A stretch of 64,000 bases of DNA from a virus. The notes beneath the pieces are model-generated. The model did no database searches and was not told the origin of the DNA. It saw only the letters and a program-made list of their open reading frames with translations. Of the stretch, positions 976 through 24,209 are shown one piece after another. A program made the translations under genes and the position numbers. The stretch covers positions 1 through 64,000 of the IMG/VR virus record IMGVR_UViG_3300027881_000536. One strand, written 5' to 3'. Within the stretch, counting starts at the first letter, position 1. Each line of letters begins with the position of its first letter.

Positions 976-1007
976 TCTCAATATGGAATACCGTATGCGC
1001 GTAGCAT

Positions 1008-2108: not shown

Positions 2109-2114
2109 TACGCG

Positions 2115-2154: not shown

Positions 2155-2172
2155 ATAGTGGGTTGATTTCAA

Positions 2173-4969: not shown

Positions 4970-5574
4970 TGTTGAAGGCGAAAGGGGGTAGATGTCCTGC
5001 TTGTGGTGGTTCTGGGGTTATGCATCCTAGGAGATTTCAAGTTCCTTGTGGTATTTGTAATGGTACTGGGACCATGCAAAAGTCATTCAGATATAACCCT
5101 CCTCAAAATGCTGCTTGGTCATTCCTCAAAGATGCAGATTTGACTCCCGCACAATGGAAACCAGATGCTCAGCAAGGTGGTGGTCAGGGGGCTACAGTTG
5201 GTGAGGCTCCTAAGAAGAGTCCCGAGGAAGAGATGCGTGAGAAAGAGTCAGACCATAATATCAGCGTGAATAACCCAGCGACACAGGAATGGTTCACATC
5301 ACTTCTACCAGATGCAGTAGAGTTCCGTCAGAAGTTGATGAATACTATGTGGAATCCAGGTACAGCACTTCATTCCCCTAACTACAAGAAAGATGTCAAA
5401 CCTATGGAGAGGTCCGCTAAAGAGATAGATTCTCTCATTGCTCATATGAGGTCTATGCATGGTGATACCCCTGGTGCTGGGCGTGGAGTTATGCCAAATG
5501 GGTCCAGTAAAGGACCCAAGAATGATGCTGCGGCAAAATTTGAGAGGGAGTTTAGTGGTCCTGGTGGGGAATAA
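4966..5574 (+). CDS. DnaJ-type zinc-finger protein with AWxxLK tag
   Basis: CPACGGSG and CGICNGTG; PQNAAWSFLK. Confidence 0.8.
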   Translation: MMLKAKGGRCPACGGSGVMHPRRFQVPCGICNGTGTMQKSFRYNPPQNAAWSFLKDADLTPAQWKPDAQQGGGQGATVGEAPKKSPEEEMREKESDHNISVNNPATQEWFTSLLPDAVEFRQKLMNTMWNPGTALHSPNYKKDVKPMERSAKEIDSLIAHMRSMHGDTPGAGRGVMPNGSSKGPKNDAAAKFEREFSGPGGE

Positions 5575-5759
5575 TGCCATCAGTTAGTCCTAAGCAAAAG
5601 AAACTCATGGCTGCTTTATCTCATGGTTGGGAACCAAAGAGGCCTTTACCGAAACTCCCTCCTAAGGAAGTCGCTTTACGGTTTCACATAGCAGACTATC
5701 CTAGCCATGACTCCACTAAGAAGGCTTTCGATGTGGCTTGGGAATCTCTCAAGACTTGA
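5574..5759 (+). CDS. Small phage protein (MPSxSxxQxxxMAAxxH type) with C-terminal AWxxLK tag
   Basis: MPSVSPKQKKLMAALSH...VALRFHIAD resembles a small protein type recalled from many tailed phages; ends AFDVAWESLKT. Confidence 0.7.
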   Translation: MPSVSPKQKKLMAALSHGWEPKRPLPKLPPKEVALRFHIADYPSHDSTKKAFDVAWESLKT

Positions 5760-5783
5760 GATAGGTTGATGCGATGACCCCTC

Positions 5784-8700: not shown

Positions 8701-11700
8701 TGGGTGAGGCTACTGATGTCACTAGCGCGAAGTTGAAAAGACACCTTATGGAAATCAACCATCCTGACAAGTTTGAACATCGCCCTTCTTACCAAATATG
8801 TCCCTCTTGTGAAGGCACTAAGAAGGAAAGGGACCATCATACTCATAATTGGATAGACGGTTCTTCTTGCACTAGATGTTCTGTAAGAGGAAAACCTCCT
8901 ACTGGTTATATTCATAAGGGTAATCGTAAAGTGAGTAGAATATTTGATTTGCCTGAGATAAGAACAGGAGTACCAGAATGTCCTTGTTGCAAAGATGGTA
9001 GTGGTCAAATGATTAATTCTCCAGGAGGGCTTGGGAAGAGTACTCGAGTTTATCATTTCCCCATTGACCATGATTTTGATACCATGACGACTATGGACCA
9101 TATCTTTGATTTAGAGAATAAATTAAAACGCGCTCAGACAAAATTCAGTAAAGAGCCTAATGATGGGAATAAAAATCAAGTCATGCAGATATATGAGGCT
9201 CTTAATGATGCTATTGAGGAAGAGACTCCACTATTGACAAAGACACTCGGTATGAGATTTGAAAGGGCTCAGGCAGAGTCTGGTAAGACTGGGCGTTCCA
9301 TGGCGGCTTTTATTGGAGGTGCGTATGGCGATGGGGAGTTTAGAGATTATGGTGTTTCATGGTTAGATAGACGACTCCCGAATGGGAAAATTGACAAGGA
9401 TTGGCAACCTACTGTTGGAAAGACCCCTTGCCCATTCTGTGCTGAGGTCAATAAGAGAGGCGAACCCCTACCTGGAAAGTTAGCAGGTACAACTCCAATG
9501 CTTGGTGATAAGGATGGTTATCATAGTCCTGCAGGTTTCTTGGGAGAAGCCCAAGGATGTCCGAGTGATTCTCACAGGGAAGATGGAGCGACTATATTCT
9601 CACAGATGGTTGCAGTCAAGCATTGGGTTGGGGAGAAGGAGTTTAATCCTGATACTGCAAGAATGGAACCTGGTAAACACCACGATATGTTAGATTTGAT
9701 AGAAGATAGTTGGAGTAAGGGCCCAGTTATAGATGATTTGAGGGATAGATTTCCAGTTGTGAGTAAATCCTCACCAGAAGAGAAGAGAAAATGGTTTGAG
9801 AAGAATCCTGGTAAGAAACTTGAGCACTTTTTCAAGGAACGGACTCAGAAGGCAAGGGATAGAGATGCTTATTCCCCTAGACCACCACAGACTATCGGAG
9901 ATTATATGTTCAATAAATTCGCTGCTCTCAGAAGAAAGAGTGGGAAGCCTACTCCGCAAGAACGCATAACTCACAAAGGAGCCTCTAGTTACTTATCCCA
10001 AGATAAGGCTAGAGTGGACCCCGTCTCTACTTTGCAGAAAACGGACTACTTGGGGTCTACAGTATCATCTGATGCATTCACTAAGGGTGAGCATTTTCTA
10101 GATAAATTGGATTCTAGTGGTATATTAGATTTTGAGGACGACTCATTCAGTAATGAGAATGAGTTAAAGCGACTTTTCGCGATACATTGTTTGATACCTG
10201 ATTACTATGGGCATAGACACTCTAACCCATTGTATATGACTGGTGGAGAGAGTGAGAAGGACTTGCGGAAATGGGCTAGAAATGTTCTGGGTGTGAAAAG
10301 AAACCATCCGGTAGGAGAAGAGATGAAATCAGAGTTCAGACATAATTTGCATATGATAGAGCCTCTTTTACAATTAGAAAAGGAATGGAGCCATTACTAC
10401 TTGGCTCCTAGAGAAGAGATGGTAGAAGAATCAGGGTGGCCTACTTCCATATTCAATACCACGGACTCCAAGCAGCCATTCCTCAATCAGGACGATTTGC
10501 AGAGGGTATTTGGTGAACTTCGTGGACATTATCGTGACTGGTGGGAGTTGATGGATTATGGTCATTATAGCCCTGACCATCATGGGTTCGTTCCCCCGAC
10601 AGTACATTTCCCTGACCTATGCCTTTTCTTGAACAACCAGCATATGCCAGAAGAAGTGGCTAAGGCTTGGTTTAATCATGACGATAAGCAATTACCTGAC
10701 TGGATGCATACCAAGGGTAAGAGTATGGAAGAGATGCAGGAATTGGCTAGTGTTCTATGGGCGGCAGGTCAAGGAGACCAAAATACTAGTCTTGAGTACC
10801 CTAAGTCAGTTGAGTGGATGGAGCAAGCGAGAGCAGACGGGAATGACCCTGACGAGTCTACTAAAATGCTCTGGTTCCGAATTAGAGATATGTTACAAAG
10901 GCGTTCTAGAGACCCTGAAGGTTCTAAGAAAGCATTAGAAGCACTCATGACCCAGAGGAATAGAACTCAACTAAACCAGTGGGGTTTCCCAACAGGTTGC
11001 CCTTGTTGCAAAGGAGAAGGACAAGTTACTGCACATCAGTTCTTAGAGCGTGCTCCTGCATTCATAGATATGGTCGACGATGATGGCTACTTTTCTGATG
11101 TACCATTGGGTGCTGATGGAACTCCTCTAGAAAAAGTAGATGGTGCATATCAAATGAATGACCCTAAGGTTCACGAATTTTTCAAAGACCATGCTAGGTC
11201 ATATTCTCATCCTAATTGGGTAGACCACAAGGAGTATGATAAGAAGGACCCCTATTGGAGAAGACATGTCATGATGCAATGCCCTGGGTGTAAAGGTACT
11301 CATGTTTGCCCTTCTTGTGATGGTCACACTGGTCGTCACCACGCATCTCCTATCATGATGGCAGTTCGCAATATTAGGAATATGCTTCACAAGGAGGCGA
11401 TGGGTATGGCTGGTAGATTCATGAAACAGCCTGTTATGGAGGATGGTCCTGTAGAAATGCAGACCGACACTCACGCTGCAGAAATCAATAATATGCCTGC
11501 TGAGGTATTGGAGGACTATGTGCCTGCTCGTGCTCAGATAGAGCCTTATACTCATGAGAGACCCAAGATGGGTTATATCGGTGCACCTACTGGTAAGAAA
11601 CCACCAGATGAAGGGGATAGAAAGGACCAGGCAGATGATGGTGGCAGTGGTATTCTATGGGTTGAAGAAGAAGATGATGAGGGGGAGTCAACTGGTTACT

Positions 11701-14700
11701 ACTATACAATCAGAGACCCTTGGCATTCCAATAGAGGTGGAAGAGGTACGCTCGCTTCCTTTGACAGGGAGTTGAAAAGGGTCACAGCCGAGCAGTTATT
11801 TGAAGGCTTATCACCAGAGGAATTCTATGATAGGGAGGATAAGAAAGATGCTGACTCTGCAAAGCAGGCTGAACTATGGGATTTGGCAGAAGGGGCGAAG
11901 AATATTAGAGAGGGGGCACGGTGGGACCCAGGTGCTCAGACACGCCCTAAGGCTGTCCAGGAAATGATAGATAGGAATCTGGCAGACCCGACATTGAAAC
12001 CTAGTAAGTGTGTGTTCCCAGGTTGTAATCAAGACATCACATATGGGCAGAAATACTGTACTGGGGAGGAAATGTACCCCCATATCAGTGTAGGGGCTGG
12101 AGGTCGAAAATTCATGGAGATGAGACCCACAGAAAAGGAGGCCCCTAATCACTTTGCACTAGTCAAAAGTCCTCATTACAAAGATGCGGTACTCAATTCT
12201 AGCATGCCGAGTAAGAACTATTGGGGTGGTCGTGAACCTATTGAGAAGATGCTTGAATTAGGGTTTAAGTTAGAAGGGAGCAAGAGGTTCGGTGTTAGAC
12301 AGGATATGGATACAGAGGCTCACAAGGAATTCATGAAAAGTGATTTCGTTAGGGTTTTGAATGAACATGGGTGGTCTGCCCCTTATCTATCAGATGACCC
12401 TGACTATGGGTCAAGTTCGCCTTTTCCAAAACCTCAACATCTAAGAGGGCGAAACAAAGCATACAATACACTAAGGGGTAAACTAGCGAATGGTGAAATT
12501 ACTCCTGAGGAGTATGAGAAGAAGATGAAGACTACTGAGGAAGGAATGAAGCCACTTAGTAATGAAGAGTTTGAGGAGAAGATGGAGGAGATGCGGACAG
12601 AGTGGTTCAATGTCACTAGAGATGCAGTGGCTGCTTGGCGTGATAGTATTGAGAAGATAGACATGCATATACCTTACTTTACACACCCCGAGGATAAGGG
12701 AAGAGTCTTCACACCTTTCGATATTTTCGATAGTCAAGGTATACCTCAAGACCATCTCCATAGCATATTTGATTATATTCCACACGGTTTAGACCCAGAT
12801 AATAATCCTCAGCATAAGACAAATTGGAAAACTGTAGGTGGTCAGAGAGTTGGATTATACTCTGTTATTCCTAAACAGGTCTGTAAGAGATGCTGGAGTG
12901 ATATAAGTAAGGAAGAGCGTGAGAATTGTGAATGCGACACTTGCGGTGAAACTCTAGCAAGCGAACATGATATAGATAGTAGTATGATGGGGATGAGTGA
13001 TAGAGGCGTACCTACTTCAATACAAGTTCAAGCAAGTGGTACTCCATTCCCTCAAGGCGCTTTGTCTCCTTTTATCAATAGTGCAAAGCATCCTGATTTG
13101 GCTGTCAAGGTATACCTCAGAGACCGACTTAGGAATAGAGCCGCTTACATAGCAGAGCATATGAAGCCTGAGGATGGTGAATTTGACCCCGCTATGACTC
13201 AATGCAAGCGTTGTAGTGGTCATGGTATATTACAAGATGAACATGGTAATCCAGTCAAATGTGGGCATTGTGTGCAAATACCTGATTTGGAATCTGAGTT
13301 AGGTAAGAATAATCATATGGTATTCAATGATGTAGACAAAGATGCTTTAATGCAAGTACATACTCCAAACTATCGGTTGATGAAAGGTAATCCACAAGAC
13401 CCAAATTCATGGAAACCCATAGATGAGAATGATGAAGAGGAATTCAAGCAGGCTCTCAAAGTGTTGAGATTAGGAGCAGGTGGTTCCAAAATCAGTGGTC
13501 GTATTTTAGGTACAGATGTAGAACAGAGGCTTAGAAAAGTGCAAATAGGAGACGAAGATGATTCTCTAGAAGAAGTAGTAGATGAAGATAAGGCAGAGGA
13601 GGCTGAACAGTATCTTAGGACTTTCTTGCAGATAGACAAGGAAGGAAAACATAGTCCAGTTCATATTCCTACTATGAACCCAGGATTATTTTCCAATAAT
13701 GTATGGGCTAATAGCAAGGGTGACGCTCCTTTGGCTAAATTCAAAGGTCATGATGATGGTAGAAATAAGGTTCAAACAAAGGTAAATGAGCATTTACATT
13801 CTGCATCTCACGATTTATTGAGTAGGGAATTATTCAGATTGGCTGGAGTTAGAAATTTTACTGAGTTAGGCAATCCGGGTCAAGGTGGTGGAAAGACGCT
13901 GGATGATGGTACTAGAGAGTTTCCGAGTTGGGTGCCTAGTGCTAGAGCCAAGAAACTGGCGAAGAGTAATATGAAAACCATTCGTCAGTTAAAGAAGAAG
14001 AAGAATATCAGTGAGACAGACCAAGCAAAGTTAGAAGATGCTCTTCTCTTGAAAGAATTCATAGGAGAAGGGAAGAGACCTGCGTGGGTACTAGGACTTG
14101 GTAATCCCATAGCAGTAGCCAATCAAGCACAATCAAACACTGAAGGTTATATGTTGGCCCCAAAAGAGGGTTTCACTGGTGTAGACATAGATATGCCAGA
14201 AACTATTATCAGAGGCTCTATCATGGGTAATGAAAATACATCTAGTGCTGAGAGGGCTGCAGGGATAGTCGGTATGTTAGATGGTGATAACAATCATTGG
14301 GTTGCGAAAGGAATTGGGAGTTTTGGTGTGGGTGGTTTGGAGTATACTAATGCTATGCGAGATATAGTTAATAGAGCAGAATCAGCATTCTTTGTAGGCG
14401 GGCCAAAACTTGGCACTATAATGGATGGTAGTCATGTTGCTCACAGCGAAATGCGTTCTGAAGGTGCTTTGATGAAGAATGCACTTTTCACTCCATCAGC
14501 ACTTCACGATGAAGCCCATAAGGCCTATGCTGAAGGGAGAGAGGAACATGGAGACCAATACATGGGACTATTGGGGCATGTATTCAAGGATACTGATATT
14601 GACACACCTATGAAAAATGAGGATGAAATAGAATCACACAGAAATGCTTCTATGGCTGGGCATTCTGAAATAGACCCGATGGGCCATGGGGGGACCCATG

Positions 14701-14900
14701 AACGCTATGATGTAGAACGAGACGATACTGCGGCTATGGCAAATCAGCCTCCAATGTCTTTCGGGGCTAGTCAGGCTGATAGTCCAAGTGCAGTACAAGC
14801 CCAGCAATGGGGGGCAGATGATGAGACTCTTCAATTGAGTGAGGACCCTGCAGAGGTTGCCTGGGCTAACATTCTCAAGAATCTTGCAATAAACCATTGA
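5784..14900 (+). CDS. Giant 3038-aa multi-zinc-finger protein, probable internal virion/ejected protein
   Basis: 9.1-kb open frame (TTG start uncertain); roughly nine Cys-based modules, four strict CxxCxGxG; AWxxLK-like tags at both termini. Confidence 0.9.
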   Translation: MGSYVLVSPVDSAWEILKGHILKASAGEPPDKTERNLINDICHEKGKNARTILKQHENDERLLVRLNEIVRKYDNDFNLASASDKEPIYRAVTEDGSALWPAGCEDALFQSTSKMASDHYKRMSPSKFVSNKEIMLLSRHPDESAGAMLSDRLRDLVELNPDAADDAKKEVMARLEDHISELDRSEKTEKTVSARMRGREGEEGYENHVREVLHKQHRMRVLKNHYRDRAASEIVGELQGVKKHHSTCPEHGVIGFPNCECPSILDSQRSDYLTLEQRMGGRHHPRHWENENLKNGVVASINDLVHIMCEFSNMANSSTIRTDGGSRKDRLEHWWKNTPWDQRKVILGLEIKYKGKHSPSLPYLLGEWMNNDDKRDFLRFVSDFEGSKSKRRREGTGARGRAASTDPGIIGDWSSNDLFHYLSPDESFASPDTHADEDSLGDTTYEDVDVGGAGDSGYGGETHFGHEGEGGIEVEDDPYSEEDIVGSEYASQTGSVRGGRKSRKPPFQIYTQQWFSTKKEKDDWLADMQERVKLSESGGETVNIRRDGKEIEVPLFQSHHPDYLTKSEMKDIIGQNDFAAECIENLNKDAAEDLLEEKRGHMQKEIDEKGVLYDGQSRGLRVSPKTMDLALEVLGFSRTPEGQRYGKLKDALFTDGKFMKENPDHILDSGVGRAAINNLLQGAEKHREAAGQTVRTIQCTKCGGSRVSKRRSSGKGGRLYPCGKCRDPFTGESTGYTTAYREGDASPEQKEQIIHDMRKEYEDIKASFIPSIRDLAHEAGFSKQCQGCKGSGEDEILRDSEGKPEKCIECEGYGNDIFLEPYLKDIYTKQEQGLSAEEAMDAAIKDAERRHSILKYRDRERLHDKRMSDLEKYGLLSNGVPALFYMNRLHEKIGSNGGGVLNRKALEAHRKEILDESPDIGFHRLKQELADRLLKVFSYIDRKHDYHGLKLADAIHSPYFEELLNILSEKPHLGEATDVTSAKLKRHLMEINHPDKFEHRPSYQICPSCEGTKKERDHHTHNWIDGSSCTRCSVRGKPPTGYIHKGNRKVSRIFDLPEIRTGVPECPCCKDGSGQMINSPGGLGKSTRVYHFPIDHDFDTMTTMDHIFDLENKLKRAQTKFSKEPNDGNKNQVMQIYEALNDAIEEETPLLTKTLGMRFERAQAESGKTGRSMAAFIGGAYGDGEFRDYGVSWLDRRLPNGKIDKDWQPTVGKTPCPFCAEVNKRGEPLPGKLAGTTPMLGDKDGYHSPAGFLGEAQGCPSDSHREDGATIFSQMVAVKHWVGEKEFNPDTARMEPGKHHDMLDLIEDSWSKGPVIDDLRDRFPVVSKSSPEEKRKWFEKNPGKKLEHFFKERTQKARDRDAYSPRPPQTIGDYMFNKFAALRRKSGKPTPQERITHKGASSYLSQDKARVDPVSTLQKTDYLGSTVSSDAFTKGEHFLDKLDSSGILDFEDDSFSNENELKRLFAIHCLIPDYYGHRHSNPLYMTGGESEKDLRKWARNVLGVKRNHPVGEEMKSEFRHNLHMIEPLLQLEKEWSHYYLAPREEMVEESGWPTSIFNTTDSKQPFLNQDDLQRVFGELRGHYRDWWELMDYGHYSPDHHGFVPPTVHFPDLCLFLNNQHMPEEVAKAWFNHDDKQLPDWMHTKGKSMEEMQELASVLWAAGQGDQNTSLEYPKSVEWMEQARADGNDPDESTKMLWFRIRDMLQRRSRDPEGSKKALEALMTQRNRTQLNQWGFPTGCPCCKGEGQVTAHQFLERAPAFIDMVDDDGYFSDVPLGADGTPLEKVDGAYQMNDPKVHEFFKDHARSYSHPNWVDHKEYDKKDPYWRRHVMMQCPGCKGTHVCPSCDGHTGRHHASPIMMAVRNIRNMLHKEAMGMAGRFMKQPVMEDGPVEMQTDTHAAEINNMPAEVLEDYVPARAQIEPYTHERPKMGYIGAPTGKKPPDEGDRKDQADDGGSGILWVEEEDDEGESTGYYYTIRDPWHSNRGGRGTLASFDRELKRVTAEQLFEGLSPEEFYDREDKKDADSAKQAELWDLAEGAKNIREGARWDPGAQTRPKAVQEMIDRNLADPTLKPSKCVFPGCNQDITYGQKYCTGEEMYPHISVGAGGRKFMEMRPTEKEAPNHFALVKSPHYKDAVLNSSMPSKNYWGGREPIEKMLELGFKLEGSKRFGVRQDMDTEAHKEFMKSDFVRVLNEHGWSAPYLSDDPDYGSSSPFPKPQHLRGRNKAYNTLRGKLANGEITPEEYEKKMKTTEEGMKPLSNEEFEEKMEEMRTEWFNVTRDAVAAWRDSIEKIDMHIPYFTHPEDKGRVFTPFDIFDSQGIPQDHLHSIFDYIPHGLDPDNNPQHKTNWKTVGGQRVGLYSVIPKQVCKRCWSDISKEERENCECDTCGETLASEHDIDSSMMGMSDRGVPTSIQVQASGTPFPQGALSPFINSAKHPDLAVKVYLRDRLRNRAAYIAEHMKPEDGEFDPAMTQCKRCSGHGILQDEHGNPVKCGHCVQIPDLESELGKNNHMVFNDVDKDALMQVHTPNYRLMKGNPQDPNSWKPIDENDEEEFKQALKVLRLGAGGSKISGRILGTDVEQRLRKVQIGDEDDSLEEVVDEDKAEEAEQYLRTFLQIDKEGKHSPVHIPTMNPGLFSNNVWANSKGDAPLAKFKGHDDGRNKVQTKVNEHLHSASHDLLSRELFRLAGVRNFTELGNPGQGGGKTLDDGTREFPSWVPSARAKKLAKSNMKTIRQLKKKKNISETDQAKLEDALLLKEFIGEGKRPAWVLGLGNPIAVANQAQSNTEGYMLAPKEGFTGVDIDMPETIIRGSIMGNENTSSAERAAGIVGMLDGDNNHWVAKGIGSFGVGGLEYTNAMRDIVNRAESAFFVGGPKLGTIMDGSHVAHSEMRSEGALMKNALFTPSALHDEAHKAYAEGREEHGDQYMGLLGHVFKDTDIDTPMKNEDEIESHRNASMAGHSEIDPMGHGGTHERYDVERDDTAAMANQPPMSFGASQADSPSAVQAQQWGADDETLQLSEDPAEVAWANILKNLAINH

Positions 14901-14910
14901 AAACGATAAC

Positions 14911-14930
14911 CCGGTTAACCTTACAACCGG
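14911..14930. other. Inverted repeat at operon boundary (terminator/operator candidate)
   Basis: CCGGTT-N8-AACCGG just after the giant ORF stop. Confidence 0.45.
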
Positions 14931-14974
14931 AGATTATATGAGGTTCTGTCCTATCGCACAGGTGAGGAAGAAGT

Positions 14975-15535
14975 ATGGCATCGCCAAATATCCCCCTACA
15001 ACCTAGTGAGACAACTGCAGATGAATTAAGGGTCTTGGGTCTAATCACCTTTGTGTCCTTGCTTGTGGGCTCAACTATCGCCGTGTTTGATTCTGGACTT
15101 TGGCTCAAGGCTGCTGATACCCAAACTAATGCTTACACATATGCGATGGCTGCCTTCACCCTACAAGGGATGTCCTTCGTTCTGTACAAGTTATTGATGC
15201 AGGACTCGATGGACCATAAGGCGGGCTTCGCACGCATGGACAGAGATAGGACTCGCAGAATGCAGCAAATGCAGCAACAGATGGCTAACCGACAGATGGA
15301 ACTAGAGATGAAAATGCAAGAGGCTCAGTTCGTTCGACAGATGCAGATGATGGAACACCAGCAGGAAATGGAATCCACTGGGGCTGATATCGTAAACATG
15401 GGTGATATGTTACTAATCCCTCAACCCCCTGGTCCTCCTCAGCACCCTTCCGAGGAGAAAGGTTCTATTGACTTGGGGCCGTCCAACAATCAGCCACGCA
15501 GTGCTGGTGGGCAGTTTGCTTCTAAGAAGGTGTAG
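14975..15535 (+). CDS. Membrane protein, 2 TM helices plus Gln/Met-rich coiled coil
   Basis: VLGLITFVSLLVGSTIAVF and AYTYAMAAFTLQGMSFVLY; RMQQMQQQMANRQMELEMKMQEAQ; AGGTGA SD. Confidence 0.8.
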   Translation: MASPNIPLQPSETTADELRVLGLITFVSLLVGSTIAVFDSGLWLKAADTQTNAYTYAMAAFTLQGMSFVLYKLLMQDSMDHKAGFARMDRDRTRRMQQMQQQMANRQMELEMKMQEAQFVRQMQMMEHQQEMESTGADIVNMGDMLLIPQPPGPPQHPSEEKGSIDLGPSNNQPRSAGGQFASKKV

Positions 15536-15539
15536 TTGA

Positions 15540-15785
15540 ATGGGATGGCTTTTCAAGACTCCCAGTGACGATGCTACTGAAGCGACTCTCAAGGCTCTTC
15601 ATTGGCAGAACACACTCGATAATTACTATGAGTATAGTTGGGGGTGGTTTAGAACTGTGCTCTTCACTATAGGGGCAGTATTCATCACTTCGGCTGTAGA
15701 GAGCAATGTGGGTGTCAGTATATGGGAGAACACAGTAGATTCCTTTATCACATGGGCTCAGGAGACAGTCGGCGGTTGGGTGTAA
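15540..15785 (+). CDS. Small single-TM membrane protein
   Basis: WFRTVLFTIGAVFITSAV hydrophobic segment; tight operon spacing. Confidence 0.7.
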   Translation: MGWLFKTPSDDATEATLKALHWQNTLDNYYEYSWGWFRTVLFTIGAVFITSAVESNVGVSIWENTVDSFITWAQETVGGWV

Positions 15786-15791
15786 GCGTGC

Positions 15792-16508
15792 ATGGCGATT
15801 GGCGGTTCAGTCCTGATGGCAGCGGTAGTATTCGGAAACGACCTCTACAACTACATGAAACCTCGTCGGTTAGGGATATACGGCCCTACTCAGGTAGGGA
15901 AAACAACCTTAGATATGTTCATGACAACTCCAGGAGAAATGGCCGATGTGGAGGACAGGACTACCCACTCAGAGAGACTCCTAGGTTCAGGGCATGTTCT
16001 ACCTCAACCTACTCGCAAGAGGATACGATACAAAGGGGAGAAGAGAGTAATACACTCATCAGACCTAGGAGGGCAGCAACGATTCTGGAATCTTTGGATA
16101 GACGACATGGTAGAGAGGCAGGTCGAAATGGTCATCTTCATGATAGACGACAGGGCTCAGAATGGGAACGGGGCAGATACAATCGACGCAGTGGGAGGGC
16201 TGGAGTATCTCGTAGACGCCTTAATCGACAGGAGATGGAAGTATCGAAGTCTCAGAAGCCGATGGAAAGGGCAGAAATATGCCCCCAAACAAATATGGGT
16301 TGTAGCAAACAAGGCAGACACATGGTGGGACAGTCAAGCAAATATCCTGTGGCAGTCTCAGCGATTGAGGGAACATCCTATATTCAACCCCTACCGACCA
16401 GCAATGGTGAAACTCCAGAAGGCAGGCATCCCCTGTCGAGTGAGCATGATGGCCACCAAGATAGGCTGGAATGTGGAACAGACTCTGGTGGACATGTTAA
16501 CATGGTGA
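15792..16508 (+). CDS. Small GTPase, Ras superfamily (Arf/Sar-like)
   Basis: G1 GPTQVGKTT, candidate G2 DRTT, G3 DLGGQ, G4 NKAD, G5-like MMATKIGWNVE; hydrophobic N-terminal helix. Confidence 0.9.
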   Translation: MAIGGSVLMAAVVFGNDLYNYMKPRRLGIYGPTQVGKTTLDMFMTTPGEMADVEDRTTHSERLLGSGHVLPQPTRKRIRYKGEKRVIHSSDLGGQQRFWNLWIDDMVERQVEMVIFMIDDRAQNGNGADTIDAVGGLEYLVDALIDRRWKYRSLRSRWKGQKYAPKQIWVVANKADTWWDSQANILWQSQRLREHPIFNPYRPAMVKLQKAGIPCRVSMMATKIGWNVEQTLVDMLTW

Positions 16509-16512
16509 TATT

Positions 16513-17532
16513 ATGGTGATGAACCCGTTTGGACAACCCTCAGAATTACCCCCATTGGGGTCTTACAACAGCCAGCAGATGCTACAGATAGCCGGTAACT
16601 CACAGGTGCCGTTAGCACAATTGAGAGAGATGGCCCAGGCTCAGACCTATATGCAGGAAGCAGCAATGCAGACTCATATCGAGATACCCAAGGTCAATTT
16701 CTACCCATCGAACCATGGTAATCTCAAGAAGGCTCGAAGGTCGGATATCCGCCAAGCCTACAGACTCCTCACCCCCACCAAACGGAGTCTATTATCCCCG
16801 CGCAGATGGTGGTTCGGTGGAAAGTACCAGTATTCCGGGGATGCCACCCACTGCTGCATCGACGGTTGTGATGTAGATAATCTGATGAGGGCTGCTGGTA
16901 ATGTCTATGATATGATTAAGGATGAGGAGACTGGAAAGTCTCTTTGGGACCTATATTTCACAGACCCTGTGAGTGGGGAGTCAAGAGGCTTCCAGGCTCG
17001 TGAGGGTGTGACTAGCGGTAGAATAGTTAGGGGGACATACTGTCCTGAGCACCTTCATCTCTATCACTTGCTCCTGAAGTGGGAGACTGCAGAACAGGAT
17101 GAGGAGGATGGGACTACAAGCACCCTCAAGTCTAGGTTGAACAAAGGCGTCTCCATGGTTACTGTCCCAGTGGCTGGTATGGCTGGTGGAGTGATAGGGA
17201 AGGATAATACTCCCCTCCCCCTGCAGAAATATCAACCATTCTTCAATATGATGAAACAGGACAACATACCTGTGGTGAGGCTGCAGAATACAGATGGGAA
17301 CAATGACCTCACTGTAGTTGTCTTTGACATGAGGCAATTCGAGACGGGGGTCAACTCTAGACTCATCAATGAGGCTATTCTTAATACTGGCTCTACTACT
17401 TCTGGTACACCTACTATGGGGCTCGGAGAACTGTTAGCACAGACAGCACCTCAGGCGGAAACTTCAACTGTGCCACCCCCTACGCAGGAAATGATGGACA
17501 CTGCTGAGGCTATGCAAGGGGTGGTCGAATGA
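16513..17532 (+). CDS. Hypothetical protein with putative Cys/His metal site
   Basis: CCIDGC...YCPEHLH; 339-aa ORF in operon with the GTPase. Confidence 0.75.
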   Translation: MVMNPFGQPSELPPLGSYNSQQMLQIAGNSQVPLAQLREMAQAQTYMQEAAMQTHIEIPKVNFYPSNHGNLKKARRSDIRQAYRLLTPTKRSLLSPRRWWFGGKYQYSGDATHCCIDGCDVDNLMRAAGNVYDMIKDEETGKSLWDLYFTDPVSGESRGFQAREGVTSGRIVRGTYCPEHLHLYHLLLKWETAEQDEEDGTTSTLKSRLNKGVSMVTVPVAGMAGGVIGKDNTPLPLQKYQPFFNMMKQDNIPVVRLQNTDGNNDLTVVVFDMRQFETGVNSRLINEAILNTGSTTSGTPTMGLGELLAQTAPQAETSTVPPPTQEMMDTAEAMQGVVE

Positions 17533-18158
17533 GTTGGTGGCAAAGCAGTCAATCACAGACTCCTGCTCCACTAGGATTACCTGGAGGACAACAGACAATG
17601 TCCGCTTATAGGACGACTGACCCTTATGCTAATCCGTATGGTGCAATGGGCGCAGGGATGATGGGGGGGATGGGATACCAATATCAACAGGCGCCACCTT
17701 TGGCTCCTCCGAGCGATTTAGAGGTGATGGCTGCTCTCATACAGACTAGTGTACCTGTGGATAGATGGTTCGCTGGTCCTAATCTAGATGTGTTAGTTGC
17801 TTTGATGTACAAAATCAGTGCTCTTGCCACTGTGGAGACTCTGAAGAATGCCAGCCTTGTAGAGACTGACGATGGTAAGTTGAAGTTCGAGTTTGTGGAC
17901 GCAACACTTCTCCCCACTGTTGACAGTGTGACGATGGAGAATAACACCCTCGCTACGGCGGCTCAAACTTCCATAACTGCAGCCCATCAGCAGCAGCAGG
18001 CTATACTCAATATGGTTCAGCAGAACCTTATGAGTGACGCGCTCGGTGCTGCTATGGCTAACCCTGGTTTCATGCAGAATGTCGGTAGTACCATTGGGAA
18101 TGTCTTCAGGGGTGCTGTAGGATTACCACAACCAACTGTGCTACCCCCAACGGTGTGA
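17529..18158 (+). CDS. Hypothetical low-complexity (Q/G/M/P) protein with central helical domain
   Basis: 209-aa ORF, ATGA overlap with upstream gene. Confidence 0.75.
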   Translation: MSWWQSSQSQTPAPLGLPGGQQTMSAYRTTDPYANPYGAMGAGMMGGMGYQYQQAPPLAPPSDLEVMAALIQTSVPVDRWFAGPNLDVLVALMYKISALATVETLKNASLVETDDGKLKFEFVDATLLPTVDSVTMENNTLATAAQTSITAAHQQQQAILNMVQQNLMSDALGAAMANPGFMQNVGSTIGNVFRGAVGLPQPTVLPPTV

Positions 18159-18162
18159 TTAG

Positions 18163-18429
18163 ATGAAACCCTCTAGTATGAACCCCATGCAGTTCATTCC
18201 ATTGGACAGTGTCCTCTATGGCATACATGATATGACGAATGTGAAGAAATCGTCTCTGATTGATATGATAATGGTACAAGTCATCAGTATCACCCTAGGT
18301 GCATTCTTGATGATAGCCTTCAATGCCAATGATATGAGGCAGACCGAGTTGACATACTCAATGGCAATTCTGTTTACCAGTCTATTGCTGACCGGAGCCG
18401 TCTACCGCAGACTCTCCGACAGAGGCTGA
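18163..18429 (+). CDS. Small 2-TM membrane protein (holin-like topology)
   Basis: IMVQVISITLGAFLMIAF and LTYSMAILFTSLLLTGAVY, short basic C-tail RRLSDRG. Confidence 0.7.
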   Translation: MKPSSMNPMQFIPLDSVLYGIHDMTNVKKSSLIDMIMVQVISITLGAFLMIAFNANDMRQTELTYSMAILFTSLLLTGAVYRRLSDRG

Positions 18430-18699
18430 CCATTTCTCTATCGGACATTCGCTGTTCGCTAGTTTTGTTTTGTAACTAAGAAAGCATCTACAAAGGTTAC
18501 AACGGGTCCCACTTCTATGTTCACACGAATCGCAAATTACTAGTCTCTTAGTCTGTTCTCCATCAGTCACATGGTTAACCTTCATAATATCTACAGCCGC
18601 TTTCCTCAAATCTGAGATTGTGGAGGCTAAAGAGGACTTCTGCGACTCGGTTGCAGCCTTATGTGTCGCGACTTTTGGAGCCCTCTTTAGACCTCGCAC
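18382..18699 (-). CDS. Cys-rich zinc-binding protein (RxxICxxC...CxxCxC...K...CPxxKW type)
   Basis: RLVICDSCEHRSGTRCNLCRCFLSYKTKLANSECPIEKW, a pattern common in viral small proteins; only convincing minus-strand gene. Confidence 0.8.
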   Translation of the reverse strand: MRGLKRAPKVATHKAATESQKSSLASTISDLRKAAVDIMKVNHVTDGEQTKRLVICDSCEHRSGTRCNLCRCFLSYKTKLANSECPIEKWSASVGESAVDGSGQQ

Positions 18700-18752: not shown

Positions 18753-19439
18753 ATGGGCGAACGCGTTACTAGGTCCTCTTGCCGTCTCTGTCAAGATACC
18801 GACAGAGATTTGCTAGAGGAAGGCTTACTCCAAGGAAGTGTAATCCCTAAACAGTTGGACAAGGATAAGAATTGGCGTGAGGGCACTTCAGACCGCCATT
18901 TCAGAAATCATATGGGGGAGTTTCATATGGGTTCAAACAGTGATTGTGTTGTATGTACTCACCCAGAAAGACATGAGTTTGAAAGTGCCTATTTCCAGGG
19001 TGGTATGACCAGTGATACGATAGCCGAGTTAGTTGAGTGTAGTGAGTCCACAGTATATCACCACATTCGGCACCATCTTAAGCCCTTGATTCAAAAGACG
19101 GCAGCCCCACTCATTGCAATACGAACAGGTGAGGAGATGAATAGTCTCAGGTCCAATGTAGAGAGATTGAATGGTGAGTTGGGGGTTTTCTTGGATGATG
19201 CTGACCGGAATGACCCTGCCTATGTGAAGAATATTACTGCTTTACACAGGGAGGTCCGGGAGACCTTGGGGCTAATGCTCAAACTCCAAGAGAAGACAGT
19301 TGGAGAGGTCCAGCAGACTATCCAAGCAGATACTGTCAACATACTCAAGGTAGAACTCGCTAAGGAGTCTCCAGAGGTTTGGAAGAGGATTCGCAACAAA
19401 TTACTCCAAGAGGATGAGGTGGTGAGGATAGATGAGTAG
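18753..19439 (+). CDS. Putative terminase small subunit / Zn-HTH DNA-binding protein
   Basis: Two tandem CxxC-HTH-HxxxH units (CRLC...RHFRNH; CVVC...TIAELVECSESTVYHHIRHH) followed by coiled coil; upstream of TerL. Confidence 0.6.
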   Translation: MGERVTRSSCRLCQDTDRDLLEEGLLQGSVIPKQLDKDKNWREGTSDRHFRNHMGEFHMGSNSDCVVCTHPERHEFESAYFQGGMTSDTIAELVECSESTVYHHIRHHLKPLIQKTAAPLIAIRTGEEMNSLRSNVERLNGELGVFLDDADRNDPAYVKNITALHREVRETLGLMLKLQEKTVGEVQQTIQADTVNILKVELAKESPEVWKRIRNKLLQEDEVVRIDE

Positions 19440-19875: not shown

Positions 19876-21172
19876 GATAAGAGTCATCAAGGATGTTGGA
19901 GGGGGGTTAAGAGGCTCTACCTCTGGTCTTAGGTTCAATCCTAGAGAGGCCCCTGAGTTTGCAGAAGAAGACCGCAATCTGGGGAGGGATGACCCTGAAT
20001 CAAAAGAACTCTATGAGGAGAAGCGAAGGAAGGAGAGGGAGGACCGTGAAAAGAAGATACATGGTCTGCGACATGTCAATATCAAAATCCCCCAAAAGAA
20101 ACGACCTCGTGGAGATAATCAAAGAAATGACGAGGCTCTTTCTGAAATGACAGGACCCGCGAGTAGTACTGGTGCTCCCCTGGATGCTGCTACTGGAGCA
20201 AAGACTGGTACAGGTTCTGCTATGGGTGGACCCAATATAATGACTGGATTACCTATTGAGATAGATAATACTATCTTCCAAAAGAGAGAACTTTCTAGAA
20301 CCAGAAGTGGTATCAAAACTATTGAGTCTAAAGCCCGTCATGAGAGGCAAAAGAAAACTACCGTGAAGCGGAAGAAGATGGGTTTAGATGTTATCCAGGC
20401 CCGTAATAATTCCAAAACTTCTCTGAATGTGCACGGCACGAGACATCCAGATAGGGCTACTAGATATCGTTTTGGTGTAAGTAAGAGAACTAAAACTACC
20501 AAAGGGTTGCCCAAAAATCCAGTATTAACTAGGAGTAGACACCGTTCTGGTAGGAACTTACTTTGGATGCAGGCTAATCCTCAGAAGAGGCTTCAGAAAA
20601 CTCATAGGAGTCAGGCATCTAGAATGGGAGTAACTGCGCTTCCTTACACTATTCCTACTCCGTATGGTGCTGGTGGTAGTCTAGGTGCAGGTTCAGGTAA
20701 CACTTTTGCTAGCCTTAACAAGTACAGTCAGCGTAATCCCATGTTACATGCCCCTCCAATTATTAAAGGACCAAGAGCCCCTCAAGTGAGAGGTGGTGGT
20801 ATGGCTGGTTTAACTGCACCACCAGAAATAACTTCTTCCATAACTGCCAGTCCTATAGCGACTTCCTTTGATGGTGTACATTCAACTTATGACCAATTCA
20901 TGATTATGAAGCGAATGACTGGTCTCAGTATGGCTGACATCAATGAGTTCAAAATGTTGGTAAGGCAGTTGAGAAGATTGATGACTAGTGGTCCTTTCAA
21001 GAAAGCGGGTCTCGAAGATGCTGAGCATGATGATGAGAGACCTACACCCAATGCTCATAGAAAGACGACTTCCTCCCCTACAGGGGCTACTGAGATAGAC
21101 CCTGATGATGACCCTCGTTTCTGGGGTGCTCATCCTATAGGATTAATATCACCAAGAAGGGGGCATATGTGA
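19865..21172 (+). CDS. Hypothetical Lys/Arg-rich protein (possible DNA-condensing core protein)
   Basis: 435 aa, strongly basic central region, several hydrophobic-x-x-K sites (IFQK|R, PIIK|G, MIMK|R, PFKK|A). Confidence 0.75.
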   Translation: MGGKIRVIKDVGGGLRGSTSGLRFNPREAPEFAEEDRNLGRDDPESKELYEEKRRKEREDREKKIHGLRHVNIKIPQKKRPRGDNQRNDEALSEMTGPASSTGAPLDAATGAKTGTGSAMGGPNIMTGLPIEIDNTIFQKRELSRTRSGIKTIESKARHERQKKTTVKRKKMGLDVIQARNNSKTSLNVHGTRHPDRATRYRFGVSKRTKTTKGLPKNPVLTRSRHRSGRNLLWMQANPQKRLQKTHRSQASRMGVTALPYTIPTPYGAGGSLGAGSGNTFASLNKYSQRNPMLHAPPIIKGPRAPQVRGGGMAGLTAPPEITSSITASPIATSFDGVHSTYDQFMIMKRMTGLSMADINEFKMLVRQLRRLMTSGPFKKAGLEDAEHDDERPTPNAHRKTTSSPTGATEIDPDDDPRFWGAHPIGLISPRRGHM

Positions 21173-22749
21173 TGCAACTTCCTGTAATTATTCTGAAGAG
21201 TAGGGGTAATTGGTGGGATAACAGCCTTATGCTCAACAGAGATGAATTGCGAGAATTAGGACTTGATGATGTCAATGTGAACCCATTCCACATCAACCCT
21301 AAGACAGGGGAATATTTTGACCCCAGTAGATTCACTGTCAAGCATGGTTATGATGGCTTGGTTGATGCTATGGCTAAGAATATCATGAGGGGTGGTGTGA
21401 CTAGTGATATTGGTAGAGCGAAAATGCTGGCTAGAAGAGACTTGAATGAAGCCACTAAGAGATTCAATGATAGGAAAGGTGCTGGAGACCCGCACAAATT
21501 GCCGATGCCTTATCATGCGAGTGGGAAACCAGGACTAGACCCTCGTTACAAATTGACTCACTATAGTGAGGAATTCCAGAAACACGCTCGTCATTCAGTC
21601 GGTCATCCTGATGATGGTATGGATACATTCGTGGCTCCAGGTAGAGGTGGTAAGAGAACACATCCTAGAGATAGGAAGACCCATGTTCATGACCCACATA
21701 CTGGAAAATTGGCGATGTCTACTAGAGCCTTAAGCAATGTTGCAGATGCTGATACTGGTGAGAATATTGAGGGTGATGAGTTACATCCTTATGCTGAATT
21801 GAAACAACTTATCGAGACAGAGCGTGGTTATGCTTTCCCTGATTATGAGACTCGTGGTGGTATAATCAATGCTGATGTGATGATGGAAGACCACGGTGGT
21901 GGTACCAGAGGTTGGAGGAGATATCATAAGAATCAGAATCCACTCAGTGCTACTCATGGTGGTGGTACCAGTCCAGACCAAAAGTTCCATCGAGGTTTGG
22001 ATGGTAAGGGTTATGACATGTTGCGTGCCATAATGAGTCTACATCCTAAGTTCTTTGAAAGAGGTTCTTATCATGAAAAGACTGTACTAGATAGGCAAGA
22101 ATATCTTAAGGAGATTTTTGAGGACTCCCCAGCAGGAATGGCACCAATCCTAGATGAACTGGCTTGGACTCCAGTAGGAGAACTCTTGACAGAACCCTTC
22201 AGGGGTGGCAGAGTTGGTAGGTCTCAGAGAGGTGTATTCAAGAGAGTACTAGGTGAAGTGAAGAACTTAGTAGGTATCCCTGATGAGACTTTGGCTCATG
22301 AAAAAGGGCCTGATTCTGAAGAGTGGGCTCAATGGAGGGCTTTCCATGATAATTCCGATAATATGCATCTTCAGATGAATGAATGGCAGAAGGCCTACCC
22401 AATGTTGTCTAAGGCGCTTTATGCTAGCGTTCTCGCTCGTAGACAAGGAGGTCTATTACCTTCACAGTTGCAATCTGATATGGCTGCTTACCTTCCTCAT
22501 ATTTCTGCGATAAATCCAGCCGAAATCAAAGATATACCATTTAACCCAGGAGGAGGGGCCAAGTTTAGAGAGGTGTCACCAGAATTGAGTGAAAGGCCTC
22601 AATTTGCTTCTGGGGGAGGAGTTGAGCCGGGTTCTCAAGTTAGTGCTCTAGGTGCTGGGATGCCTGTCAGTAGAAATTCATCTGATATACTACTATCTGT
22701 CAATGCTATGGACGATGCGTGGAGTTTCATCAAGGGGGTGCACTGTTGA
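21169..22749 (+). CDS. Hypothetical protein with C-terminal AWxxLK tag
   Basis: 526 aa; N-terminal VIILK|S; ends AMDDAWSFIKGVHC. Confidence 0.8.
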   Translation: MMQLPVIILKSRGNWWDNSLMLNRDELRELGLDDVNVNPFHINPKTGEYFDPSRFTVKHGYDGLVDAMAKNIMRGGVTSDIGRAKMLARRDLNEATKRFNDRKGAGDPHKLPMPYHASGKPGLDPRYKLTHYSEEFQKHARHSVGHPDDGMDTFVAPGRGGKRTHPRDRKTHVHDPHTGKLAMSTRALSNVADADTGENIEGDELHPYAELKQLIETERGYAFPDYETRGGIINADVMMEDHGGGTRGWRRYHKNQNPLSATHGGGTSPDQKFHRGLDGKGYDMLRAIMSLHPKFFERGSYHEKTVLDRQEYLKEIFEDSPAGMAPILDELAWTPVGELLTEPFRGGRVGRSQRGVFKRVLGEVKNLVGIPDETLAHEKGPDSEEWAQWRAFHDNSDNMHLQMNEWQKAYPMLSKALYASVLARRQGGLLPSQLQSDMAAYLPHISAINPAEIKDIPFNPGGGAKFREVSPELSERPQFASGGGVEPGSQVSALGAGMPVSRNSSDILLSVNAMDDAWSFIKGVHC

Positions 22750-24209
22750 CAGCAATTGATAATGTTTGGGAGTTCTTGAAGGACTATCAAGCCGTAGTAC
22801 CTGGAACAGAAGGTGAGAGAGGGCCAAATAGGCCACTTACTCAGAGAGGATTAACTCCAACAGAATTATCAGATGCACCATACACATCTGCAGCACCTCC
22901 TGTTATGGCTGGTGGTATGGGCCTTGCTGGTGGTTTGATGGGTGGTGTGCTGGGTGGGCCGCTTGGTGCAGTAGCAGGTGCTGGTTTAGGTACTGCTTTT
23001 GGTGGTGCTATGGGTCAGTCAATAAAGCCTCAATCAATTAGAGAGCGTCAAGCACAGTTTAGAGCACAGCAAAGGATGCTAAGACAGAAAATGAGGCAAT
23101 GGAATGAGTTGAATCGTAGAGTTCAGTCTGGTACTGCTCGTTTCCCTGAGGGTTATGAGCATGGCCCTAGAATTCAAGTTGGTAACAGAACTTATCCTGT
23201 AAGAGACCTTCTTTGGCAACCTGGACATGAACGAGAATTAGTGATGGGTATACCTAAGGAATTCACAAGTGGGAAGAAGAGAGGGGAGCAAAGGAACATA
23301 TTTGGCCCTGATAACAGACATTTAGATGTTGGAAAACATCCTGTTCCCGGAAGGACAGTCTTTGGTCCCGGAGGATATGTAGAGGGATTCAGAGATTGGT
23401 ACCAAAGTGGTATGAGTAATGCTGATAGGGATGCTGGTAGAAGAGCCGCTTTCCTCAATGATAAATTCTCTCGTCAAGGGTGGCTCTATCCTGATGAGAT
23501 GAGGGCTCTACAAGACCATCATGCTAGTGTTAATCCAATGTTAGTTGCTGGTGCTGCTGATAAACTCGGCCTGATTCGTGAAAAGAAGGTTAAGGACAAG
23601 AAAGGAGAGGCTGAAGAAGAATCTTCAGATGATAGTCTTGAAGATGGTCTTAAAGAAGAGAGTGAGGAACTAAAGCGACTTGCAGAGAGAGGTAAGAAGA
23701 AAACTGGTAAAATTTCAGTAACGGAGCCTTCTGAATCGGAATGGCATGAGAATTTCGAGACACACACAGCCAAGGGTCATGCAACGAAGGATGGTAGTAC
23801 AGATACATATCACAATATGCATGCAGATACTTATGCCAAAAAGATGAAAGCGGCTTGGCCCAAGGGTTTTGATTTGGAGCCTCCTGAATCAAATAAATGG
23901 AGATTGGGTGATTGGGTGAGGAAGAGACATTTCGGAGTTTCTCCTGAGGCTAAGAATTTGAGTAAGTACTGGAAGACGATGCAGAAAGTCTTACCTCATT
24001 TGGACCAAGAGGGTATGTTGAAATGGATGCGTAGTCATCCAGGCTGGGAAGGAGTTCCAGACGATTTCCAGTGGCTTCCTGAAAAGGGCTCTAAATCTAG
24101 TGAGATTAAATCAGAAGGAGTCTCAGACTCTTCTGGTAGAAAGTCGAAGAAAAGTCTACATCAAATACATCCTTTAGAACAGGCATGGGCCTTATTGAAG
24201 ATAGGGTGA
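22746..24209 (+). CDS. Hypothetical protein tagged at both ends, with Gly-zipper hydrophobic segment
   Basis: TTG 22746 after GGGGGTG preferred over 22719; AIDNVWEFLK and PLEQAWALLKIG; GGMGLAGGLMGGVLGGPLGAVAGAGLGTAFGGAMG. Confidence 0.8.
   Translation: MTAIDNVWEFLKDYQAVVPGTEGERGPNRPLTQRGLTPTELSDAPYTSAAPPVMAGGMGLAGGLMGGVLGGPLGAVAGAGLGTAFGGAMGQSIKPQSIRERQAQFRAQQRMLRQKMRQWNELNRRVQSGTARFPEGYEHGPRIQVGNRTYPVRDLLWQPGHERELVMGIPKEFTSGKKRGEQRNIFGPDNRHLDVGKHPVPGRTVFGPGGYVEGFRDWYQSGMSNADRDAGRRAAFLNDKFSRQGWLYPDEMRALQDHHASVNPMLVAGAADKLGLIREKKVKDKKGEAEEESSDDSLEDGLKEESEELKRLAERGKKKTGKISVTEPSESEWHENFETHTAKGHATKDGSTDTYHNMHADTYAKKMKAAWPKGFDLEPPESNKWRLGDWVRKRHFGVSPEAKNLSKYWKTMQKVLPHLDQEGMLKWMRSHPGWEGVPDDFQWLPEKGSKSSEIKSEGVSDSSGRKSKKSLHQIHPLEQAWALLKIG

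Follow-up and report, generated by a model that had tools for sequence, protein, structure and literature searches.

Positions 14975-18429 of the viral DNA examined here are occupied by a cassette of six genes, designated g1 to g6, in which an Arf-related small GTPase is accompanied by small membrane proteins and orphan soluble proteins. The window, i.e., the whole stretch of DNA that was analysed, is the first 64 kb (64,000 nucleotides) of the 118,155-base IMG/VR record IMGVR_UViG_3300027881_000536, which is rated complete by CheckV. The original prediction had described a block of six genes at this site, and all six open reading frames (ORFs) were indeed located there, in the same direction on the plus strand and translationally coupled; neighbouring genes are 4-6 nt apart, except that g4 and g5 overlap in an ATGA. 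The cassette consists of g1 (14975-15535; a 186-amino-acid (aa) membrane protein belonging to no Pfam, PHROG, or PADLOC family), g2 (15540-15785; an 81-aa protein with a single transmembrane (TM) segment), g3 (15792-16508; a 238-aa divergent Arf-related small GTPase), g4 (16513-17532; a 339-aa soluble orphan with a probable Zn site), g5 (17529-18158; a 209-aa low-complexity protein), and g6 (18163-18429; an 88-aa 2-TM protein of holin size). Upon comparison with a relative carrying a 92%-identical GTPase, the ratios of nonsynonymous to synonymous substitution (dN/dS) for g1 to g6 were 0.077, 0.092, 0.056, 0.029, 0.089, and 0.069, respectively. All six genes are therefore real and under strong purifying selection. 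Another ORF of 265 aa (15722-16519), which overlaps g3 in a different frame, is spurious.

The g3 product carries the complete set of GTPase motifs listed in the original prediction, G1 (GPTQVGKTT), G3 (DLGGQ), G4 (NKAD), and a G5-like MATK (within MATKIGWNV), and these are invariant or nearly so in its homologues. Among 130 distinct family sequences from three lineages, GKTT, Dx[GA]G, and NK[AY]D were each present in 129, and the position aligned with the G5-like motif is occupied by SAK, SAR, SAQ, or SAL in distant members. The residue that follows Dx[GA]G, examined in 129 sequences, is Gln in 89, Glu in 30, His in six, and Asp in four. A Trp residue (W102), located 11 residues downstream of the G3 Asp (D91 in D91-x-G-G-Q95), is shared with Arf and Sar1 and retained in at least 90% of a diverse set of aligned sequences. 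The G domain is extended by inserts after switch I, at residues of about 145-165 (a polybasic insert), and after G4. Taken together with the model described below, these motifs identify g3 as a real small GTPase with intact nucleotide-binding motifs, for which GTP binding and hydrolysis are predicted.

The AlphaFold2 (AF2) model of g3, with a predicted local distance difference test score (pLDDT) of 65 and a predicted template modelling score of 0.66, consists of a Ras-like G domain preceded by an N-terminal helix of residues 3-22. Foldseek search with this model gave at least 500 PDB matches at E <=0.001, and the best 50 matches listed were all small GTPases, G-alpha subunits, or a translation-factor G domain. 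Exhaustive structural comparison by VIA gave the Lokiarchaeal RagA-like GTPase LokiRagO (Z 13.0; root-mean-square deviation 3.7 over 168 residues) and SR-beta (Z 12.2; 3.2 over 159 residues), together with Arl2 (Z 11.8), Gs-alpha (Z 11.6), Arf6 (Z 11.5), RagD (Z 11.5), and Sar1 (Z 11.2). In a second structural comparison, Gtr1 (12.6), Arl2 (12.3), Arl1 (12.0), and HodArfR1 (11.9) were found in a group of Z 11.8-12.6 that also included GerdArfR1, and Rab and Ras proteins were at about 10.3-10.5. By structure, Arf and Arl thus rank level with Rag, SR-beta, and G-alpha, all lying about one Z unit or less apart.

Sequence profiles were compared with all PDB sequences. The profile A1, made of close homologues alone, gave no real match, and the diverse profile A6 with 17 members was needed. 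GerdArfR1 (8OUN; E 1.9e-5) and Arl8A (E 5.3e-5) were then placed ahead of Rab33B (E 2.7e-3) and KRas (E about 5e-3); RecA rows in the same result were repeated P-loop artefacts. The Pfam Arf family (PF00025) matched g3 below threshold (13.9 bits against a gathering cut-off of 22.3; E 0.039). It was the commonest weak match among 18 family members, found in nine with the best E of 6.2e-4, and none passed; Gtr1_RagA and SRPRB (E 0.19) were each matched by one of the 18. Only the generic small_GTP domain of NCBIfam was detected in g3, again below the cut-off. No longer, fused form of the GTPase was found in the search, which is weak evidence. On the basis of the fold ranking and the sequence-profile ranking, g3 belongs to the Arf-related branch (Arf, Arl, Sar, SR-beta, Rag, and G-alpha) without finer placement, and fails the curated Arf threshold. 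The original assignment to an intact GTPase of the Arf/Sar/SR-beta type is hence supported by the fold and weakly by the sequence profile.

The N-terminus of g3 (MAIGGS) lacks Gly2 for N-myristoylation. Since Sar1 and Arl8 also lack it, its absence excludes Arf proper only. The N-terminal hydrophobic helix noticed at the outset corresponds to the model helix of residues 3-22. By the Kyte-Doolittle scan, by which all TM segments were called here, this segment is hydrophobic and remains below the threshold for TM (maximum 1.39). In this lineage the helix is Gly/Ala-rich, with a mean hydrophobicity of 0.5-0.6 and a hydrophobic moment of 0.18-0.31, and in distant members it is clearly amphipathic (moment 0.44-0.54). 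As judged from these sequences, a predicted membrane-seeking N-terminal helix is a trait of the family.

The two proteins encoded downstream of the GTPase are soluble orphans, and the original description of g4 as a Cys/His protein and g5 as a low-complexity protein was borne out by the sequence. The gene for g4 is the most constrained of the cassette (dN/dS 0.029). Its product contains a basic helix (KKARR..RLLTPTKR), a Cys/His site (C114, C117/C119, C177, and H180), an acidic helix, and a disordered C-terminal third. The Cys/His cluster, a probable Zn site by its sequence, is retained in most members of all three lineages, and is lost in two loci (L004 and L088). The AF2 model of g4 (pLDDT 60) gave no match to a longin, roadblock, or any other fold, as was proposed to be looked for in the partners: the best VIA matches, connexin and PRONE, were at noise level (Z 4.0 at best), and Foldseek matches were all at E >0.1. 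With a pLDDT of 60, a known fold is still possible. The g5 protein starts with a short conserved N-terminal motif, followed in its N-terminal half by a Q/G/M-rich low-complexity linker; a PPS[DE] motif opens a conserved central region, and the Q-rich C-terminus ends in a G-rich tail. ESM Atlas gave no usable match for g4 and g5. Pfam search of g1 to g6 gave no meaningful match outside g3, and the same was true for the relatives of g4 and g5 (18 and 31, respectively). No SRX, longin, or roadblock-like partner was recognized by the fold search with the g4 model or by Pfam search of the g4 and g5 relatives.

Among the three membrane proteins, g1 had been described as a 2-TM coiled-coil protein. 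One strong TM segment (residues 20-38) was found, and the second (about 55-75) is weaker in g1 itself and scores as TM in homologues. The hydrophobic segments are followed by a helical stretch rich in M/Q/E/R and then by a P/Q-rich basic tail, and 2-TM homologues or positional equivalents of g1 are present in all three lineages. The g2 protein has one TM segment, as described originally, together with a conserved N-terminal segment of the MGWLFKTPSDD type and a Trp-rich C-terminal tail. For g6, two TM segments were found as predicted, but the holin-like character is weakened since an endolysin partner is missing and the gene is outside the deep conserved core. Its C-terminal tail consists of only seven residues (RRLSDRG). 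As a holin, g6 was thus rejected for the short tail, the lack of an endolysin nearby, and its absence in deeper lineages; it is a lineage-specific component. Scans of the cassette proteins against Pfam and PHROG gave no family-level similarity to any holin, PHROGs gave no match for g1 to g6, and PADLOC gave none for any of the seven proteins tested, g1 to g6 included.

The GTPase family is represented in marine metagenomes by 465 clusters at 90% identity, and is narrow in sequence space, with 75 representatives among 1.84 billion proteins. A scan of IMG/VR gave 224 contigs carrying a GTPase relative, and a second scan with distant members gave 108 more. GTPase relatives were found on marine contigs of 90-116 kb (Tara and others). 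No cellular copy was detected in one genome each of 185,579 species, with search patterns that reach fairly close relatives only, and no match was found among INPHARED phages by tblastn with g3. Among the viral structures of BFVD, the small-GTPase matches of g3 were all from giant eukaryotic viruses. Of the four most distant members with readable contigs, three are on virus-like contigs, and the weakest (28% identity, E 7.8e-4) is on a contig of bacterial type. The most distant matches of the family are carried by contigs of P0155 (Logan) and P0194 (ENA). One distant match is located on a phage-like contig with integrase, Tad2-like, and Acb5 genes, where two unknown proteins follow the GTPase, and a borderline match lies on the bacterial-type contig beside ribosomal protein genes and dnaB.

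The order of g1 to g6 was identical in 81 of the 84 loci examined, the other three being cut by a contig end. In a lineage with a GTPase identity of about 33%, the layout is 2-TM protein, 1-TM protein, GTPase, g4, and g5, without g6, and this five-gene core is kept at GTPase identities of about 33-40%. Conservation of the neighbours together with the GTPase, which the original prediction had named as a check, was thus observed both in close relatives and, for the core, in distant lineages. Members of the 33% lineage (G001, 98 kb, and G004, 103 kb) are tailed viruses, with the large terminase (TerL) 37-38%, the capsid protein about 50%, and the portal 46% identical to those of this virus. In that lineage the cassette is located downstream of the capsid gene and not upstream of the terminase; in this virus the genes for a helix-turn-helix (HTH) protein, TerL, and the portal come directly after it. 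The loci L087-L094 and L004 form a third group, which retains the g1-g4 core, with g5 recognized in three loci and g6 in one. In the most divergent cassettes, g2 and the GTPase gene are separated by one additional gene of about 250 aa (L004:5241-5999 and L094:7220-7990); the L004 product is very acidic with a long poly-Asp run, and the L094 insert corresponds to it by position and size only.

One element of the third group, G002 (locus L088), is 140,336 bases long with direct terminal repeats, is rated 100% complete by CheckV, and carries the cassette together with a gene for a thermosome-type chaperonin (L088:4915-6447). Searches of G002 gave no match to TerL, portal, or capsid protein of the window, nor to Terminase_6N, Terminase_6C, or Peptidase_S78, all of which are accordingly to be taken as not detected and not as proven absent; in the same searches, G001 matched TerL, capsid, and portal of the window and Terminase_6C. 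Because the core is kept in distant lineages at different genomic positions, it predates this virus lineage by far, travels as a unit, and is bound neither to a single genomic position nor to one type of virion module. Full-text searches of the literature gave no description of the cassette, and a GTPase is not mentioned in the magrovirus papers PMC5434244, PMC10160649, and PMC11706807.

A hairpin had been proposed as the upstream boundary of the cassette. The inverted repeat (CCGGTT..AACCGG stem; 14910-14931) exists in the 74-nt gap between a 3038-aa ORF and g1, but it is not a typical plus-strand terminator, having a terminator-like score on the minus strand only, and is weakly conserved, since even L007 and L008, the closest relatives, retain it only in part. 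The same gap contains a TATA-like sequence, ATTATAT (14933-14939, plus strand), read from the sequence about 35 nt before the g1 start, and a Shine-Dalgarno-like GGTGAGG (14961-14967, plus strand) before the g1 ATG. At the same place an element of (G)ATTATATG or GGTATATG is present in L007, L008, and L011, and the other relatives are AT-rich there. Since the TATA-like element and GGTGAGG are kept in close relatives and the gap is AT-rich in others, a separate promoter is plausible, and the two elements are plausible candidates for the archaeal promoter and ribosome-binding site of the operon. Neither AAACGATAA nor a TATA-like pattern was enriched in the window, so a recurrent promoter motif was not detected.

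At the downstream end, the predicted convergent gene was confirmed as a 105-aa Cys-rich gene (DUF6171, phrog_13558) on the minus strand (18382-18699), which overlaps the 3' end of g6 by 48 nt. It is the sole minus-strand gene of the region, is present in L001 and absent in L003, and marks the cassette boundary while itself being outside the cassette. Next to it, a 228-aa protein (18753-19439) that has Cys pairs near its N-terminus and an HTH motif at residues 82-107 is encoded a few genes 5' of TerL and is kept directly after the cassette in relatives; it is a candidate for the small terminase or a late regulator. An AWxxLK-type tag ([AGS]-W-x-x-[LI]-K) was found near a terminus of nine consecutive non-nested ORFs of at least 50 aa upstream of the cassette and of two ORFs downstream, and is absent from all six cassette proteins, in agreement with the original observation. 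The tag may be a capsid-targeting or protease-processing signal. Tagged ORFs span 286-14900 and 21169-24209, and the residue before the motif is usually acidic or hydrophobic; among the upstream ORFs, a NUDIX hydrolase gene (1008-1484; Pfam E 1.2e-14) has the tag at the N-terminus, and the 3038-aa protein has it at both ends. In RNA libraries from several studies, short Logan contigs match g1-g3, the genes compared, at identities of at least 99%, and one of them spans the g1/g2 junction, the RNA label of its run being only a guess. These contigs are weak support, since DNA carry-over is possible and they show neither a transcript nor its timing, strand, ends, or level.

Besides the cassette, the window carries head-tail hallmark genes, TerL (24214-25617), portal (27059-29035), S78 prohead protease (37742-39130), SU10-type capsid protein (39130-40275), and tail tube (45241-47205), and three giant ORFs of 3038, 2395, and >4313 aa (5784-14900, 30522-37709, and 51060-64000, respectively), of which the 3038-aa product is rich in CxxC pairs. 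A family B DNA polymerase is encoded by the same 118,155-base record. The head-tail genes, the marine relatives, and the thermosome-type chaperonin encoded by related elements all fit a tailed virus of marine archaea of the magrovirus type. Magroviruses are viruses of Marine Group II archaea (PMC5434244), and the host assignment here is taken from the literature.

Among the known proteins close to g3 are those of the Arf family (GerdArfR1, 8OUN/8OUM; HodArfR1, 8OUK; Arl8; Arl1/Arl2; Arf1; and Sar1), which have the same Ras-like G-domain fold (Z 11-12) and are its best sequence-profile matches among solved structures. The features in common are GKTT, DxGG[Q/H] with the Trp at +11, NKxD, and directly before strand 1 an N-terminal helix, which in g3 is predicted to be membrane-seeking. 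Unlike Arf, however, g3 is about 60 residues longer through its three inserts, of which one is polybasic, lacks Gly2, and is encoded by a prokaryotic virus beside membrane proteins without a recognizable ArfGAP or Sec7 partner; in about a quarter of the viral family, moreover, Glu or Asp follows DxGG. The top structural matches are in the Rag/Gtr and SR-beta group (LokiRagO 8YL2, Gtr1 3R7W, and SR-beta 2FH5; Z 13.0, 12.6, and 12.2, respectively). SR-beta has an N-terminal membrane anchor, and the N-terminal segment of g3 is hydrophobic too, but g3 lacks the C-terminal roadblock domain of Rag GTPases. Giant-virus GTPases (for instance, mimivirus Rab, 5XC5) are likewise virus-encoded members of the Ras superfamily and the sole viral BFVD matches; they are recognizable copies of Rab, Ran, and Ras from eukaryotic hosts, whereas g3 has no close cellular relative and is encoded in a dedicated membrane operon.

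A system of comparable gene organization is ArvABC (OapABC) of Euryarchaeota. ArvA is an Arf-like small GTPase with an N-terminal amphipathic helix that drives membrane vesiculation, and is followed by two small partners, one of which, ArvC (DUF2072), is a Zn-ribbon protein; the other, ArvB (OapB), resembles the SepF fold (PMC10927574). Of 151 genomes sampled from one archaeal phylum, 83 carry ArvA, with the genes for OapB and a Zn-ribbon protein adjacent. In both ArvABC and the viral cassette, an Arf-like GTPase with an N-terminal helix is followed by two proteins, of which one probably binds Zn, but ArvABC is without integral membrane partners and the viral cassette opens with two. As a member of the ArvA family, g3 was rejected: the viral profile scored at best 22.4 bits against 37 cellular ArvA proteins, compared with about 19-20 for Ras and 26-28 for Asgard ArfR1/Arl8 at the same database size; hhalign aligned only 38 columns around the P-loop; and ArvA has DTPG and NKID in place of DxGGQ and NKAD. 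The candidacy of g4 and g5 as homologues of ArvB and ArvC was also rejected, with hhalign probabilities of 0.1-3.2% (OapB 0.1%), no Pfam match to OapB (PF09846) or DUF2072 in g4, g5, or their 18 and 31 relatives at E up to 1, no SepF-like match of the g4 model, and an unrelated, probable Zn site in g4. These comparisons make ArvABC a functional analogue and not a relative, and as far as the sequences tell it is the nearest such analogue, with no homology apparent beyond the common G domain.

Holin cassettes of the lambda S-R-Rz type provide another comparison. In these as well, small TM proteins lie at or in the late module directly before the packaging genes, and g6 resembles a class II holin in its size and 2-TM topology. 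The viral cassette differs from holin lysis cassettes, however, in having neither endolysin nor spanin and in having a conserved core that consists of the GTPase and two orphans. The host archaea are without murein.

The cassette is proposed tentatively, at a likelihood a little below even, to be a virus-owned, GTP-switched module that acts on the host membrane, remodelling or breaching it late in infection. GTP binding would expose the N-terminal helix of g3, as in Arf and Sar1, and the exposed helix would bring g3 to the cytoplasmic membrane of the host, the presumed site of g1 and g2, so that g3 would cycle on and off this membrane. The g4 and g5 proteins could act as regulators or effectors of g3, and g4, given its Zn site and invariant basic residues, would be the better candidate of the two for a protein like the GTPase-activating proteins (GAPs). 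The holin-sized g6 may be an added component in this lineage. The output would be a host membrane remodelled or breached late in infection, most plausibly for progeny release, in which case the small membrane proteins would carry out membrane remodelling or rupture timed and driven by the GTPase, itself switched by the Zn protein g4 and the Q-rich g5, and not follow the holin-endolysin logic. That release is the actual output, and hence that the cassette is the release machinery of archaeal head-tailed viruses, is possible but doubtful. A late, non-virion role is suggested by the location of the cassette among late and structural genes and by the lack of the AWxxLK tag, and its presence in G002, in which TerL, portal, capsid, and S78 protease were not detected, points to independence from head-tail assembly.

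Several observations weigh against a GTP-switched membrane module. Gln follows DxGG in just 89 of the 129 sequences, and since it is not universal the catalytic mechanism may differ or need a partner. The models of g3 and g4 are of moderate confidence (pLDDT 65 and 60). The N-terminus of g3 is hydrophobic rather than amphipathic, and could be a fixed short anchor as in SR-beta and not a switch. The sole holin-like piece, g6, is missing from the deeper lineages (the 33% lineage and G002-type elements). Finally, an assembly role would account just as well for the location of the cassette within the structural module.

Such a role, in which the cassette would form a membrane-anchored platform that tethers procapsid assembly, DNA packaging, or a viral factory at the membrane, is in line with its location within the morphogenetic module in two tailed lineages, before HTH/TerL/portal in one and after the capsid gene in the other, and with the Q/G/M-rich nature and conserved C-terminal region of g5, which are not unlike those of scaffolding proteins. 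It is unlikely, however, because the core is also present in G002-type elements without detectable terminase, portal, capsid, or protease, the cassette proteins lack the AWxxLK tag of the neighbouring presumed virion or cargo proteins, and a separate protease and capsid region is found at 37742-40275. The same G002-type elements, large and without detectable head-tail genes, would suit a device for vesiculation as in ArvA, by which host membrane vesicles are budded so that capsid-less relatives can spread, to serve as decoys, or to remodel lipids. In ArvABC, the Arf-like GTPase, which bears an amphipathic helix, is needed for vesicles and has two small partners (PMC10927574), a probable Zn protein and another small protein come after the viral GTPase as well, and the G1 region (GIYGP..GKTTL) is alike in the two. 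Even so, such a device is quite unlikely, given that the viral profile scores ArvA (about 22 bits) no better than Ras (about 19-20) and below ArfR1/Arl8 (26-28), that the 38-column alignment is confined to the P-loop with DTPG/NKID on the ArvA side, and that g4 and g5 are unrelated to ArvB and ArvC, with no SepF-like match of the g4 model.

A host-takeover or protective function at the membrane, for instance g3 as an SR-beta-like anchor that redirects the targeting of membrane proteins, exclusion of superinfection, or disturbance of a host membrane process, is very unlikely: no SRX, longin, or roadblock-like partner was recognized, no PADLOC family was matched, and the cassette lies amid late and structural genes and not among early genes. 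In its favour are the place of SR-beta among the best fold matches (Z 12.2), an N-terminal segment of g3 hydrophobic enough for a fixed anchor as in SR-beta, and the three accompanying small membrane proteins of no known family. A recent lone host-derived GTPase insertion, the case that the original prediction had set against itself, without dedicated partners, or else a set of non-genes, is hardly conceivable; nothing speaks in its favour, and it is contradicted by the data, namely the 75 representatives in 1.84 billion proteins, with the weakest alone on a bacterial-type contig among those looked up, the lack of a detected copy in one genome each of 185,579 species, the strict synteny, and dN/dS of 0.03-0.09 for the six genes.

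The egress of archaeal head-tailed viruses is unexplained and their holins have been elusive (PMC10791045); a 2024 review that describes this egress as unexplained only speculates that viruses might exploit the ArvA of the host. The cassette provides concrete, testable genes for the egress of such viruses from murein-less cells, and its g4 and g5 proteins are candidates for small-GTPase regulators of a non-canonical kind. Marine Group II archaea and their magroviruses count among the microbe-virus pairs that are most abundant in the surface ocean, and to our knowledge no Marine Group II archaeon or magrovirus has been cultured. With g3, the known range of Arf-related GTPases, which had comprised eukaryotes, Asgard archaea, and giant viruses, now extends to viruses of the prokaryotic type. 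If the cassette serves progeny release, it would be a prokaryote-virus counterpart of the GTPase-driven membrane trafficking of eukaryotes.

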